Shown here one piece after another: positions 1,725 to 26,627 of a stretch of 64,000 bases of DNA (its first letter is position 1; every line of letters begins with the position of its first letter). A model generated the notes under the pieces. That model was not told where the DNA came from. It did not search any database and saw only the letters and a list, made by a program, of their open reading frames with translations. The DNA lies in the NCBI GenBank assembly GCA_029099845.1, contig JAQXOT010000023.1, forward strand, positions 150 to 64,149. The letters are read 5' to 3'. The position numbers and the translations under genes were made by a program. This DNA is from a bacterium (GTDB lineage Bacteria; Bacillota_I; Bacilli_A; RF39; UBA660).

Positions 1725-3122
1725 TCATGCAAAGTATTGAGCAATAACATCATAATCACAATAAGGAATTTTCTCATTACCTATTGCCATATAATTATCT
1801 CGTCCCTTACCCAAAATTAAGACAACATCGCCACTTAAAGCTAAATTAAAGGCCCGATAAATAGCCGCTTTTCGATCAATATTTCGTTCATAATTAGAAT
1901 TAGTTGTTGCCCTAAGCATATCGTCAATAATTAAATCAACATCCTCATTTCGTGGATCATCCATTGTAAAAATTACCAAATCAGATTTTTCCAAAACAAG
2001 TTTTCCAATCTGAGATCTTTTTTCCTTTTCTCTACCTCCCGCTGCTCCCGTAACAGTTATAATACGCTTATAATCACTAACACTATTTAAAATATTTAAA
2101 ATTCCATTATAAGTATGGGCATAATCTAAAATAATTTCAAAATCTTGCCCAAAATTCAAGTGCTCAGAACGACCTAATACAGGCTCCATATTTTTAATTT
2201 GCTTAATCAAAACATCACTAGATATACCTAAATACAAAGATACAATAAAGGCTAAGCCAACATTATAAATGTTATATTTCCCCAAAAAAGGGCTAAAAAT
2301 AGCATAAGAATTACTTTCATGATTAACTGTAAAGTTAACACAATTATCTAAATATTTTACATTAGAAAACACAAAGTCATTATTCCTATTAAAACCAAAA
2401 GTAGACATATCATCATGTGTCAACATCCGACAATTATCATCATCGCCATTAATAAAAATATGTCCATCACCATCTAAATAATTAACTAGTAAAAATTTTG
2501 CATTTCTATAATTTTCAATAGTTCCATGAATATTTAAATGATCCTCTGTAATATTAGTAAAACAAATAACTTTAAATTTTAAACCAGCAATTCTATTATG
2601 AAGTAATGCCTCACTTGACACTTCCATTACCACAGTTTTACATTTTTCTTTTTTTATAATTGACAAAAACTTATATAATTGAGGAACACAAGGTGTAGTA
2701 TTACTACTATCATAATGTTTATCTAAAATATCTACGCCATTTGTCCCAATATAAGCAACTTCCTCTTTTGATGATAATAATCGTCTAATAATTGAAGCTG
2801 TCGTCGTTTTTCCATCAGTACCAGTAATACCAATAAATTTAAATTCTGTTGGATTGACACCATAAAAATTTTGGCATATCTTCACAAAAGCATCAGAAAT
2901 ATTATCAACTACTACTACTGGTACAGAAACACTAATTTCTTTATCTGTTATAATTGCACTTGCTCCTCTAGCAATAGCATCATCTATAAAATCAAAGTGA
3001 TCAACATTAAACCCTTTAGTCGCTACAAAAAGATATCCTACTTCAACAAGCCTTGAATCTTCGGCTATTCCAACTATCTCTATATCAAAAGGGCATTTAA
3101 TAAGATTACAAAGTTTCTTCAT
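1725..3122 (-). CDS. murE: UDP-MurNAc-L-Ala-D-Glu:diamino acid ligase MurE (DDPR specificity motif, likely Lys/Orn type)
   Basis: GITGTDGKTT P-loop, MEVSS, TNITEDHL, DYAHT, MDDPR and GKG motifs. Start at ATG 3122 after GGAGG; ends in TGA. Confidence 0.93.
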   Translation of the reverse strand: MKKLCNLIKCPFDIEIVGIAEDSRLVEVGYLFVATKGFNVDHFDFIDDAIARGASAIITDKEISVSVPVVVVDNISDAFVKICQNFYGVNPTEFKFIGITGTDGKTTTASIIRRLLSSKEEVAYIGTNGVDILDKHYDSSNTTPCVPQLYKFLSIIKKEKCKTVVMEVSSEALLHNRIAGLKFKVICFTNITEDHLNIHGTIENYRNAKFLLVNYLDGDGHIFINGDDDNCRMLTHDDMSTFGFNRNNDFVFSNVKYLDNCVNFTVNHESNSYAIFSPFLGKYNIYNVGLAFIVSLYLGISSDVLIKQIKNMEPVLGRSEHLNFGQDFEIILDYAHTYNGILNILNSVSDYKRIITVTGAAGGREKEKRSQIGKLVLEKSDLVIFTMDDPRNEDVDLIIDDMLRATTNSNYERNIDRKAAIYRAFNLALSGDVVLILGKGRDNYMAIGNEKIPYCDYDVIAQYFA

Positions 3123-3183
3123 ATAACCTCCTACAATACAATAATACGCCAAAAAATTAATAAAATTAATAAAGGAAAAGAAA

Positions 3184-4233
3184 TTACTTTTCCTTTTCCT
3201 TTTTCTTATCTTTTTCCTCTTCTTTGGTAATAACTATATCATAATATTCACGAACTTTATTTTCAAGTTCTTCTTTTAATTCAACGTTTTCCTTAAGTAA
3301 CAATTTAACGTTTTCTTTACCTTGACCAAGCTTTTCACCTTGATAAGAATACCAAGCACCTGTTTTTTCAACAATACCAGCTTCAGCGGCTAAATCAATA
3401 ATTTCTCCTTCACGAGAAACACCTTCACCATACATAATATCAACAGTCGCAGTTCTAAATGGTGGAGCAACCTTATTTTTTACAACCTTAATGGTAGTTT
3501 TATTACCAACAATTCCCTCACCCATTTTTAATTGCTCATTACGTCTAATATCCAAACGAATAGAAGAATAAAATTTTAATGCCCTTCCACCAGGAGTAGT
3601 CTCTGGGTTACCAAACATAACTCCAACTTTTTCACGCAATTGATTAATAAATATACACGTAGTATTAGTTTTACTAATTGTTCCAGACAACTTTCTTAAA
3701 GCCTGGCTCATAAGCCTAGCTTGTAATCCAACATGAGAGTCCCCCATTTCTCCATCAATTTCAGCTTGAGGAACAAGTGCTGCTACCGAATCAATAACAA
3801 TAATACTAACAGCCTCACTTCGAACTAAAGCATCACAAATTTCCAATGCTTGCTCACCAGTATCAGGTTGAGATAATAACAACTCATCAATATCAACACC
3901 CAACCTTTCAGCATATACTGGATCCAAGGCATGCTCAGCATCAATAAATGCCGCACGACCTCCTGCCTTTTGATGCTCTGCTATTGCCTGCAAAGCAAAA
4001 GTCGTTTTACCACTTGATTCAGGACCATAAATTTCGATAATACGACCACGCGGATAACCACCAACACCTAAAGCAATATCCAAAGATAAACATCCACTAG
4101 AACAAACATCAACTTTTAAATGTTTATTATCTCCTAGTTTCATAATAGAGCCTTTCCCAAATTGTTTTTCAATATCATTTAATACCTGCTCCAAAGCTTT
4201 ATCTTTAGATACATCTTTATTTTCTGCTTTCAT
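3184..4233 (-). CDS. recA: Recombinase RecA
   Basis: [29 protein letters not shown] signature. Confidence 0.99.
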
Positions 4234-4264
4234 ACTTACCTCCTAGTAAATAACTTACAAAACC

Positions 4265-4315
4265 ATTGTATACTAACTTAAAATAAAAATCAATAACATT
4301 TCGAACAAATGTTTT
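4265..4315 (-). promoter_or_regulatory. recA sigma-A promoter (TTGATT-17-TACAAT) with adjacent LexA/Cheo SOS box
   Basis: CGAACAAATGTTTT at 4302-4315 matches the Firmicute GAAC-N4-GTTY box. -35 at 4288-4293, -10 at 4265-4270 (minus strand). Confidence 0.75.
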
Positions 4316-4392
4316 TATTTTTTGATAACAAAATTACTAGCAAAAAGAAAAAATCCCCTAAAGAAAAAGGATTTTTCACAACAAATTGATTA

Positions 4393-5001
4393 TCAATCAA
4401 CAACTTTCTTAGAAATAATAATATCTTTATTCATAGAAAAATATTGCCAAGCTGAGATAATAGACATAATACATGCAAAATATAACAATAAGGATGCAAC
4501 ATCAATACCTACAAGAGCAAATGGTAAATTATAGAAGAAAGATAACACAATACCAACCATTAAAGATGCCGTTTTCAACTTACCAGCACCAATAGCTGCA
4601 ACAACCTTTCCTTTAGCAGCTGCCTCCATTTTAATTGCATTAACCACAATATCACGTAAAACAATAATTACTGGAATAATTTCATTAATAAATCCATGTG
4701 CTGCTAAAATAATTAATACTGAATTAACTAAAACTTTATCAGCAATAGCATCAAGCATCTTTCCAGTATCAGTAATTAAATCATATTTTCTCGCAATATA
4801 TCCATCCAAAAAGTCTGTAAGACTAGCGATTATAAAAATAATACCAGCAATAATATATTGTAATTCAATAGGATTAGACAATCCCGAAATCGTAAAAGTT
4901 GGAAATTGTATGCCAACTGCATAAAATGGGAAAACTAATAAAATTATTATTACAATTGATAAAATTAATCTAAGTACAGTTAATTTAGTAGGTAAATTCA
5001 T
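4393..5001 (-). CDS. pgsA: CDP-diacylglycerol--glycerol-3-phosphate 3-phosphatidyltransferase
   Basis: DFLDGYIAR...G...D...DK CDP-alcohol phosphotransferase motif; synteny with recA. Confidence 0.95.
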   Translation of the reverse strand: MNLPTKLTVLRLILSIVIIILLVFPFYAVGIQFPTFTISGLSNPIELQYIIAGIIFIIASLTDFLDGYIARKYDLITDTGKMLDAIADKVLVNSVLIILAAHGFINEIIPVIIVLRDIVVNAIKMEAAAKGKVVAAIGAGKLKTASLMVGIVLSFFYNLPFALVGIDVASLLLYFACIMSIISAWQYFSMNKDIIISKKVVD

Positions 5002-5479
5002 AAATAAGCTCCTCTCTTAAATCTGGTAACAATTCTTCACTACGAACAGGTACCCTATTGATAGTACTAATTACCCAATAAATAATTAGTATTAACAAAA
5101 TAAAACCTAAAAAAACACAAATAAACGGCCATGGGCCAATTTTTTTTGTATAAGTTTTGGTATATGGAGACTGAACTTTTTTTTCACTATCCTCAATCTT
5201 TTTCTGAGCGGCCTTGATATCTTCTAAAGATATTTTTGATGTATGTTCAAATAAAAAGCCATTAAATTCATCAACTACTTTTTCTGAATCTAATCCTAAA
5301 TATTTAGCATACTGAATAACATAAGATTTTAAATCATAAACATCTTTAAAAGCCTTAACATTACCACTTTCTATATTTTCAAGTTGAGATGTAGATAATT
5401 CTAAATCTTCGGCTGCCTCTGTCAAACTAACACCATTACTAGTTCTAGCTTGCCTTAAATACTCTCCTAATTCTTTCAA
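4985..5479 (-). CDS. RodZ/YmfM-like HTH + TM protein (short, little extracellular domain)
   Basis: LGEYLRQAR...IESG...YAKYLGLD HTH and one TM helix, upstream of pgsA like ymfM. Likely TTG start at 5479 after GAGGTG. Confidence 0.75.
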   Translation of the reverse strand: MKELGEYLRQARTSNGVSLTEAAEDLELSTSQLENIESGNVKAFKDVYDLKSYVIQYAKYLGLDSEKVVDEFNGFLFEHTSKISLEDIKAAQKKIEDSEKKVQSPYTKTYTKKIGPWPFICVFLGFILLILIIYWVISTINRVPVRSEELLPDLREELIYEFTY

Positions 5480-5502: not shown

Positions 5503-5862
5503 AATAAATATAAATAAGCCATGTTCTGTTCCTAGTAATCTAGGCGACAAACATTTATCTATTAACTTTCGTCAATCCCTAATCTAATTCTTATTATCAA
5601 ATTAAAGCTCCCCTACCAAAATTTGGGTTTCTCACTCGCGGGGTTTACCACGTTTCACTCTTTCGTTTCCAAAAGCCTCGTCACTGCGGCACTTTATGGC
5701 ATAAAATCATATCACAAGACTTAGATTTTAAAACCGCCGTTAGTAAAAACTACCCTAAGTTATTTTTTCCTTAGGCGCGAACACTACAATCATCACAGAT
5801 TGTGCGAGCATGGACTTTCCTCAAGAATCATATAAATTCCAGCGTTTGTCTATATATTAATT
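5503..5862 (-). ncRNA. rnpB: RNase P RNA, bacterial type B
   Basis: Minus strand has GAGGAAAGTCCATGCTCGCAC, AGTGCCGCAGTGACG, GGTAAACCCCGCGAG, TAGATAAATG and ACAGAACATGGCTTA; P2 helix GACAAAC/GTTTGTC. Follows gpsB as in Bacillus. Ends approximate. Confidence 0.95.
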
Positions 5863-24750: not shown

Positions 24751-25353
24751 ATGGCAAGATATACTGGTCCAAGCTACAAACAAGCTCGTCGTGTTGGTTT
24801 TTCTATCAGTGAAACTGGTAAAGAATTAGCAAAACGTCCTTATGGTCCTGGTCAACATGGAAATGAACGTAAAGGAAAATTATCTGATTACGGAACACAA
24901 TTAAAAGAAAAACAAAAAGTACGTTTCATGTATGGTTTAAATGAAAGACAATTCCATAAAACATTTGTTGAAGCTGAAAAAATGGAAGGAATTCAAGGTA
25001 CTAACTTCTTAAGATTACTTGAATCTCGCTTAGATAACCTAGTTTATCGTATTGGTTTCGCATCAACGCGTCGTGGAGCTAGACAACTTGTTAACCACGG
25101 ACACGTAACTGTAAATGGTAAAAAAGTTGATATTCCATCATACAGAGTAAAAGTTGGTGACGTTATTTCTCTTAAAGAAGATGACAAGAACCTAAAAGTA
25201 GTTGAAGAATCTTTAGCAAAAGTTTCAAAGCGTGTTGATTTCATTACTTATGATGAAAACAAAAAAGAAGGAACTTATGTAAGATTACCTGAAAGAAATG
25301 AATTAAATGCTGATATCGATGAAGCATTAATCGTTGAATTCTATAACAAGTAA
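24751..25353 (+). CDS. rpsD: 30S ribosomal protein S4
   Basis: [27 protein letters not shown]. Confidence 0.99.
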
Positions 25354-25381
25354 AAAAGAACTAAAATTAGTTCTTTTTTTT
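25352..25381 (+). terminator. rpsD intrinsic terminator
   Basis: AAAAAAGAACTAA-AA-TTAGTTCTTTTTTT hairpin. Confidence 0.8.
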
Positions 25382-25530
25382 GTATACAAATTTAGCAAAA
25401 AAATAAAAACCAAATATTATGTTCATTATTTTGATTTACATAGATAATACATAAATTAGTCATAAAATTAAATAACTCAAGCATTATACACAAATAATAT
25501 ATGAACTTTACTATTAAGTATAAAATTATA

Positions 25531-25564
25531 CAAAAAAAAGACAGTATGACTAAATCACACTGCC
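25531..25564 (-). terminator. Intrinsic terminator downstream of the WXG100-like fragment
   Basis: GGCAGTGTGA-TTTAG-TCATACTGTC followed by a T tract on the minus strand. Confidence 0.7.
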
Positions 25565-25585
25565 ACATAAGTAACTACACGCTTA

Positions 25586-25738
25586 TTATACTGATTGTCC
25601 AGCAATAGTACCAGTATCTGAACCTAAATCACCAGAAATATCAGCATCTTGTTGAGCGTAAACAGTTTGAACACTATTAACAATTTCAGCTTCAGCAGCT
25701 TTTAACTTATTTAAATAAGATATTGAAACCTCTACTTT
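25586..25738 (-). pseudogene. 3' fragment of a WXG100-like (type VII secretion substrate) gene
   Basis: Start-less frame KVEVSISYLNKLKAAEAEIVNSVQTVYAQQDADISGDLGSDTGTIAGQSV ending TAA TAA; helical, with a YxxxD motif. Confidence 0.5.
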
Positions 25739-25889
25739 TTAAAATCCCCCCCTCAGAATTAGAATCAATATTTATAGAATTTTCCATTCCTGTATCATAT
25801 GACTTATAAGAAAAAAGTAAAGCACCATCCACTTTTGCTGGCAAATTATATTTTACTAAGTTATTCTTTTCCTGAATATATAATCTCAT
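25707..25889 (-). pseudogene. 5' fragment resembling the N-terminus of EssC (type VII secretion ATPase)
   Basis: MRLYIQEKNNLVKYNLPAKVDG...INIDS...ILKS resembles the N-terminal FHA-like region of Firmicute EssC as I recall it. Promoter and RBS intact; truncated after about 50 codons. Confidence 0.5.
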
Positions 25890-25999
25890 ATGAAATCCCA
25901 CCTATTATGTTAACATTGTATCAAATTACCAAAACAAAGTCCATAAATTAAAAATATTTCAAATTATTTTTAATAAAAAGTAAAAATAAAATTTCTAAT

Positions 26000-26542
26000 C
26001 TATCTATCCTTTACTTCTATTTCCTCACAATAACAGTTTTTAATATCAAAATCTAATAAATTAGAAGAATGATTAGTTCCTCTTAAAATATGATGTAAAG
26101 CTCTTATTGGTGCACCATGAGAAACAATTAAAATATCCTGTCCAGGGTGTCGCTCATATAAATAATTTAGAAAATCTTCGCATCTCGCAAAAATATCCTG
26201 TACTTTCTCAACCTCATTATCACCTAAATTAAGGTCATAATCCCAATATTTATTAACATCATACAACTCCCTACTCTTTCCCTCTAAAGTTCCCATATCA
26301 CGTTCTATAAGTCTCTTATCTGTTACTGTTTCAACACGTTCACCAATTAAAATTATCGCAGTCTCTACTGTTCTTAATAATGGAGACATATAGCAAACAT
26401 CAAAATGCTTATCTAATAATTCCGTCCTTAATTTTTTACATTGTCTTCTTCCTTCATCATTTAAATAATTATTAGTTAATCCTTGAATTTTATTTTCATA
26501 ATTAAAATCCGTTTGTCCATGTCTAACCAAAGTAATTTTCAT
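26000..26542 (-). CDS. Histidine phosphatase (phosphoglycerate mutase family)
   Basis: LVRHGQT, SPLLR, VSHG motifs. Confidence 0.92.
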   Translation of the reverse strand: MKITLVRHGQTDFNYENKIQGLTNNYLNDEGRRQCKKLRTELLDKHFDVCYMSPLLRTVETAIILIGERVETVTDKRLIERDMGTLEGKSRELYDVNKYWDYDLNLGDNEVEKVQDIFARCEDFLNYLYERHPGQDILIVSHGAPIRALHHILRGTNHSSNLLDFDIKNCYCEEIEVKDR

Positions 26543-26627
26543 ACCCTACCTCCAATATTTTTAATACACAACTATAATAGCAAAATAAAACTGTTTTTTC
26601 CACAATAAAAGAGGAAAACTGTTTCCT

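Follow-up and report, generated by a model that had tools for sequence, protein, structure and literature searches.

Probable scar of a recent deletion of an accessory type VII secretion cassette in an uncultured pig-gut bacterium

Proteins of the WXG100 type are about 100 residues long and carry a W-x-G turn between two helices. In T7SSb systems, the usual pseudokinase membrane partner is EssB/YukC, and the YxxxD/E motif was defined in mycobacterial systems. PMC5311947 treats YxxxD/E as a general type VII secretion motif. According to Garrett, Higginson and Palmer (2024, PMC11217815), the systems T7SSa to T7SSj share a near-universal core of a WXG100 protein (A), a ubiquitin-like protein (B) and an ATPase (C), and two T7SS subtypes have been reported together in a single genome. 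The locus studied here is the remainder of a gene cassette that relatives still carry, and this cassette encodes the A/B/C core together, with the A component recognised on weak scores. Compared with T7SSc to T7SSj, it has the same core (an EssC with FHA, the TsxB-type protein s93 and WXG100-related small proteins) and nothing further that is recognisable. Its likeness to the EssC/TsxC ATPase of T7SSb lies in the relatives' intact gene, which passes the TIGR03928 equivalog and has FtsK_SpoIIIE and N-terminal FHA matches; it differs from the T7SSb of the Staphylococcus/Bacillus type in that EssB/YukC was not found in the five genomes searched. Judged by its sequence, the essC copy left in the studied genome is a gene remnant and no working member of the EssC family.

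We analysed a 64-kb stretch of DNA (the window) from G000, a metagenome-assembled genome (MAG) in 28 contigs that is 91% complete. We consider it very probable that almost all of a type VII secretion (T7S) cassette was recently lost in a single deletion of about 6,699 bp and that window positions 25583-25943, on the minus strand, are its scar; the deletion mechanism and the remnant's lack of function are the parts that we infer. Every element of the scar is encoded on the minus strand (Table 1). The promoter described in the earlier note, with its TG-extended -10 element, is present as a candidate site. A promoter scan gave 10 promoter-like sites, against 7.3 +/- 2.9 in shuffled sequences; since this count is not special, the match alone is weak evidence. 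The essC ATG of G007 also has a TG-extended -10 element upstream at a comparable distance. The terminator scan of 800 bases found one site, where 0.0 were expected from shuffles. The start-less frame, double stop and terminator that the earlier note had listed are likewise all in place: frame B is open for 50 codons at 25738-25589, reads KVEVSISYLNKLKAAEAEIV...GQSV and contains no ATG, GTG or TTG. The differing codon usage that the earlier note saw in the 3′ half would, judged by eye, reflect a peptide rich in Ala, Glu, Val, Asp and Gly, the product of another gene. Searched alone against Pfam and NCBIfam, neither the 5′ nor the 3′ half matched a family at E <= 10. As part of the deletion-scar explanation, and at the high probability that we attach to it as a whole, the promoter-like site (of predicted function), the ribosome-binding site and the terminator would be leftovers of the lost essC operon.

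Table 1. Elements of the scar, in window coordinates
Feature	Position	Strand	Details
Promoter-like site	25915..25943	-	TGGACT 25943-25938, 17-nt spacer, TG-extended TACAAT 25920-25915; 9/12 matches
Ribosome-binding site	25896..25903	-	AGGTGGGA, 6 nt ahead of the ATG at 25889; read directly
Residual 60-codon ORF (frame A)	25707..25889	-	MRLYIQEK...ILFK, then stop; 52 essC codons, 8 out-of-frame codons of the 3′ gene and TAA (25709-25707)
essC-derived stub	25733..25889	-	Codons 1-52 and one base; EssC homology
Deletion junction	25732..25733	-	Base 25733 common to both parental sides; contig pieces and homology limits
s154 3′ end	25583..25732	-	About 48 codons, GAG 25732 to GTA 25589, then TAA TAA 25588-25583; start-less; off-frame relative to the stub
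Intrinsic terminator	25530..25564	-	11-pair stem and loop of 3 (25564-25540), T8 run

The two halves were searched separately against 40 related genomes and G000. The 5′ half corresponds to residues 1-55 of EssC in four species of the same genus (G007, G012, G014 and G015), with 71-80% amino acid identity and E values from 1e-19 to 1.7e-25. The matched EssC frames are 1545, 1545 and 1548 aa long in G007, G014 and G015, respectively, and 644 aa long in G012, where the contig ends; a remoter match, with 31% identity, was obtained in G002. The 3′ half corresponds to the C-terminal ~45 residues of proteins of 144-157 aa, encoded by a gene here called s154, in the same four species (52-61% identity, E ~1e-10). 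It also matches a start-less 58-codon frame in G013, a genome in which the 5′ half of G000 had no match at E <= 1. On single contigs of G007, G014 and G015, the matches of the two halves lie 6.7-6.8 kb apart. The check that had been proposed on the separate halves was thereby carried out, and its outcome agreed with the proposal: one half leads to the N-terminus of a long EssC and the other to a short helical protein far downstream, and the "essC-like start" of the earlier note is borne out in all four species. The stub retains 52 of about 1545 codons, without ATPase domains or a membrane segment. In relatives the FtsK_SpoIIIE matches lie at residues 698-890 and beyond, and the Pfam FHA match in the EssC of G015 (residues 110-175) is downstream of the part retained in G000.

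By nucleotide homology, essC stops at 25733 and s154 begins at 25732, with nothing between them. Codon 53 of essC would begin at 25733 and the s154 codon GAG begins at 25732; because these codon starts differ by one base, the fusion was off-frame as soon as it formed and does not require a later frameshift. The frame change that had been placed near 25735 is real, but its position is 25733/25732, inside AAAAAGTA/GAGG (the slash marks the join), and not in the G7 run. One base, 25733, is common to both pieces, as seen from abutting contig pieces and from the essC of other species, and a single shared base points to illegitimate recombination. We propose that a single recent event took about 6,699 bp, and with them nearly the whole accessory T7S cassette, out of the phosphatase/rpsD interval, by illegitimate, non-homologous recombination or by replication slippage; no repeat or site-specific mechanism would be needed. 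The loci examined showed no flanking repeat, integrase or transposase. On the essC side the promoter, the ribosome-binding site and the first 52 codons would survive, and on the s154 side the final ~48 codons, the double stop and the operon terminator; arranged in this way, the remnant could yield a peptide of no more than 60 residues, for which no function is expected. A 9-nt microhomology, TAAARAGTA, which is common to essC and s154 of G007 and G014, was considered as a driver and discarded: the s154 side of the same species, visible at the loose end of the X8 contig described below, differs, and a crossover at TAAARAGTA would make the junction 5 nt shorter than the one seen.

The stretch is found mostly in pig-gut metagenomes. 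We compared it with Logan contigs, which are assemblies, from four runs of four studies (X2, X3, X6 and X8), the probable source being omitted. A contig of 1,948 nt from X2 spans 25111-26600 unbroken, differs by 6 substitutions and 1 gap, and has the same scar as G000. In a contig of 8,845 nt from X3 and one of 8,765 nt from X6, the two pieces that match the window meet at 25733 and are separated by 6,699 nt; the equivalent distance in G015 is 6,677 nt. The match of the X8 contig stops at 25733, and its loose end, translated by eye, reads ...FIEGVK, the s154 residues expected just upstream. From their length, their position and the X8 loose end, we infer that the 6,699 nt in X3 and X6 are the cassette. 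Both forms therefore exist in one species, the deleted form in X2 and G000 and the 6,699-nt form in X3 and X6. Between 25486 and 25748, no substitutions were listed for X3 or X6, and because the remnant is identical to their intact allele, the deletion is recent.

On the minus strand, position 25748 is G in G000 and T in X2, X3 and X6, where it gives TGG, the codon of the conserved W of W[IF]LKS in EssC. The G turns this conserved Trp codon of the stub into a Gly codon and makes the G7 run, which is either a change private to G000, that is, a post-deletion mutation, or an assembly error. A hotspot of substitutions and small indels occupies window positions 25386-25486, about 100 bp from the rpsD terminator to the cassette terminator; it distinguishes the haplotypes of G000 and X2 from those of X3 and X6, while the flanking genes are nearly identical. 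A scan of metagenome contigs for the same-species intact allele returned three loci, with 74-81% identity, all from other species.

The species nearest to G000 is represented by G015, with 91% identity in TyrS. Its gene order is a CYTH-like gene, tyrS, a histidine phosphatase gene, the cassette, the convergent rpsD and ezrA, and G000 has the same order and orientation minus the cassette. Window positions 28400-25761 align to G015 without a break, reaching 129 nt into essC, and 25353-24701 align to rpsD. Since G015 holds the cassette in the same gene order, the pair G000/G015 ancestrally had the cassette here, and the state of G000 is the derived one. Among the 20 other species of the genus, only G015 has the cassette at the phosphatase/rpsD site. 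The gap between phosphatase and rpsD is only ~60-175 bp in G008, G009, G016 and G007, and a query with the phosphatase had no hit in this interval of G004 and G011. In G007 and in one metagenome contig, the cassette lies between gap and pgk, and the fragments of G012 are consistent with the same place, so that its cassette is probably also there. The operon that had been predicted between tyrS and rpsD in relatives thus exists in G015, more exactly between the tyrS-adjacent histidine phosphatase gene and rpsD, whereas in other species it is at gap/pgk or is absent from this site. The deletion scar itself, as the earlier note had read it, is supported: the halves are two genes of one cassette, G015 is syntenic, and 6,699 extra nucleotides lie at the join within the same species.

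Other genes occur around the same site. G003 (L028, C3) has two genes here that G000 lacks: one of 416 aa at 2248-3498 lies between tyrS and phosphatase, and an unrelated one of 391 aa at 4068-5243, whose product has an N-terminal hydrophobic segment, lies between phosphatase and rpsD. The tyrS/rpsD site seems permissive for insertions.

The cassette consists of eight genes in the order essC-s93-s108-s99a-s100-s104-s99b-s154, which is the same in G007, G012, G014, G015 and one metagenome contig; s93 encodes 90-93 aa, five genes encode 99-108 aa and s154 encodes 144-157 aa. The EssC of G015 scored 968.8 bits against the NCBIfam model TIGR03928, "type VII secretion protein EssC" (cut-off 778.4, E 4.3e-291), and matched Pfam FtsK_SpoIIIE (E 5.8e-45) and FHA. 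By sequence, s93 gave a weak YukD match in just one of eight members, and its profile found nothing among PDB sequences. Its predicted fold is a ubiquitin-like beta-grasp (pLDDT 86), and the best PDB match of the model is the Ubl domain of EccD from ESX-5 (E 1.4e-5, TM 0.70). WXG100/ESAT-6 matches below threshold were obtained for s104 and s99b, and W-x-G was seen in s99a, s100 and s99b. The cassette is therefore a type VII secretion locus, composed of EssC, a ubiquitin-like gene of the EsaB/YukD type and six genes for small helical proteins, of which several are WXG100-like. EssB/YukC (PF10140) was not found at E <= 0.1 in G000, G015, G007, G013 or G002, in a search for this one partner whose control rose above the cut-off in one genome. 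Pfam and NCBIfam searches of the cassette's genes returned no kinase, phosphatase, FHA protein or extra membrane component. The earlier note had called the operon "complete"; this holds for EssC, the ubiquitin-like protein and the six small helical proteins, but not for EssB/YukC.

The gene that supplied the 3′ half belongs to a family with members in 14 of the 201 genomes sampled from the order, with the G000 remnant counted, and a search of genome contigs with the s154 alignment gave three loci, all of them among those from the genome search. Its members have a variable, Gly/Ser-rich N-terminal part of ~55 residues, followed by two long helices joined by an [FL]-x-G turn. The turn reads AFKG, AFRG, GFKG, AFQG, GLYG or ALKG in nine of ten sequences and AFKS in L053. 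Near the C-terminus is a Y-x-x-Q-D motif, of which Y135, Q138 and D139 (G015 numbering) are invariant in six sequences of the genus, the remnants of G000 and G013 included, and Y135 is nearly invariant over ten family members. The C-terminal motif of the YxxxD/E type that had been noticed is thus present in the remnant, with a putative role in export. An AF2 model of s154 shows helices at 60-86 and 96-153, forming a helix-turn-helix hairpin, with a mean pLDDT of 57.7. With this low-confidence model, Foldseek found no match at E <= 0.001; its weak rows place EsxA, EsxB and CFP-10/ESAT-6 chains beside unrelated hairpins. The s154 profile found nothing relevant among PDB sequences (best apolipophorin, E 0.0069), and s154 of G015 matched 0 families in Pfam and NCBIfam. 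Weak WXG100 matches, none reaching the cut-offs, were obtained for two of ten members (best E 4e-4 in Pfam and 0.018 for TIGR03930), and weak LXG matches also for two of ten. By hhalign, the helical part of s154 is related to s104 of the cassette (92%, E 5.7e-7); a kinship to s99b, for which hhalign gave 9.6% probability, was discarded.

Compared with the WXG100/ESAT-6 family (PF06013, TIGR03930), s154 is alike in its aromatic-x-Gly turn, its Y-x-x-Q-D motif and its kinship to s104, may also be alike in its predicted hairpin, and differs in its length of 144-157 aa, its ~55-residue low-confidence N-terminal extension and the F or L that stands in place of W. This weak, transitive evidence suggests a relationship of s154 to WXG100 proteins; "WXG100-like" describes its look, as its score, its length and its missing WxG lie outside what membership demands. 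The "WXG100-like end" of the earlier note can be kept in that descriptive sense, with the helical look and the conserved YxxQD, but the protein falls below the WXG100 cut-offs and has FxG rather than WxG.

Elsewhere in G000, outside the window, contig C8 carries a second essC-like gene (L061 6960-12038), which encodes 1524 aa with FtsK_SpoIIIE (1e-42) and FHA matches. It is followed by a paralogue of s93 of 84 aa (hhalign 99.6%) and then by an ORF of 75 aa. Counterparts of this second essC, of 1525-1526 aa, are present in all five genomes checked, and the locus looks like a conserved "core" copy. WXG100-type genes are also found elsewhere in G000, one of them over the Pfam cut-off. The queries used here found no further copy of the cassette in G000, whose assembly is 91% complete, so that an unassembled piece might still carry one. 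Because this second essC-like locus is kept, T7S was not lost altogether in the G000 strain, and because all five genomes checked have it, the deleted cassette is best regarded as an accessory second system.

Remnants of the cassette were also observed in other genomes. Between gap and pgk of G013 (L035, C38), at 5652-5828 on the minus strand, lies the start-less 58-codon remnant of an s154 C-terminus, whose homology to G007 starts within ~3 nt of the start of the G000 remnant (L016 13996 versus about 13993). Of the 344 bp between gap and this remnant (L035 5787-6130), only the first ~80 nt match the gap-downstream sequence of other genomes. In G044 (L049, C2; 1136-1953), from another genus, essC codons 1-30 are followed off-frame by residues ~17-98 of s99b, which is of the WXG type and start-less here, and then by an intact s154 of 150 aa with its own ribosome-binding site; apparently, an internal deletion arose here separately and ended at another right-hand breakpoint. 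Only essC residues 1-60, in a frame of 69 codons, are left in G181 (L075, C3; 4069-4242), and only residues 1-184, in a frame of 200 codons, in G405 (L078, C8; 5609-6145). Full-length essC matches with interrupted frames occur in G424 (L076) and G358 (L077). Of 401 genomes sampled from the family, 121 had a match to the profile of the essC N-terminus. With essC 5′ stubs in G000, G044, G181 and G405 and a 3′ remnant in G013, the accessory cassette appears to have been lost repeatedly.

Three other explanations of the scar were weighed. The earlier note had itself offered a single gene of about 100 aa, disrupted in the G7 or A5 run by a one-base frameshift or a sequencing error, and the homopolymer runs do adjoin the frame change; the A5 run minus one A would even formally unite both frames. 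A shift in the G7 run is unable to join them, because frame B reads TAA at 25741-25739, and the X2 contig has the same run lengths, with no indel listed there. In five other genomes or contigs the halves belong to two genes that lie 6.7 kb from each other, which refutes the single gene, and no search returned a contiguous homologue of ~100 aa; we regard the chance that this account is right as practically nil. Collapse of an intact cassette by the assembler, or a mis-join of its parts by assembler or binner, deserves thought for a MAG in this many contigs, since coexisting intact and deleted forms can confuse assemblers. However, the one shared base is far too little for a k-mer collapse, and X2, an independent assembly from another study, has the same continuous junction. 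X2 is not the same data as G000, because the two differ at 25748. We accordingly reject the assembly collapse that had been kept in view, as a very unlikely source of this junction.

It is also highly improbable that the remnant is active, in the sense that the peptide of 60 aa, or a fusion of ~100 aa that arises by frameshifting and bears the C-terminal YxxxD motif, is made and kept and might serve the remaining EssC as a decoy or substrate. The promoter, ribosome-binding site and terminator are intact, the 3′ frame is still open for 50 codons, another EssC is retained in G000 and essC 5′ stubs recur in other genomes, all of which would fit such a role. However, intact signals and an open frame are also expected of a recent deletion, and the remnant is identical to the X3/X6 allele; the stubs elsewhere have differing right-hand partners, which means that no one fusion is conserved. 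Essential neighbours that limit the reach of deletions explain the retained ends more simply. We therefore retain a single recent deletion of the cassette as the explanation of the scar, which is a fresh instance of a familiar process, ordinary gene loss.

If the deletion explanation holds, the scar is a pseudogene and calls for no annotation as a small protein gene. The locus would be a presence/absence polymorphism at base resolution in an uncultured pig-gut species, with both alleles in public metagenomes, and may serve as a strain marker, while the deleted form would be a natural knockout with which to study the role of the accessory system. On a wider scale, we put forward one joint proposal, which we hold only tentatively and think somewhat doubtful as a whole: the lost cassette may be an unusually minimal T7S module, made of an EssC with FHA, a ubiquitin-like protein and helical proteins related to WXG100, with no recognisable second membrane component, and possibly an undescribed subtype; it would occur in up to two paralogous copies in a family of uncultured gut Bacilli whose genomes measure ~0.8-1.6 Mb, the accessory copy residing at phosphatase/rpsD or gap/pgk depending on the species and apparently being destroyed repeatedly by internal deletions. 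The compact cassette of EssC, ubiquitin-like and WXG-like genes is widespread but patchy in this large family of small-genome gut Bacilli and seems to be lost repeatedly; if the joint proposal is true, this pattern would mean that a system for secretion or contact-dependent competition turns over fast at the level of strains.
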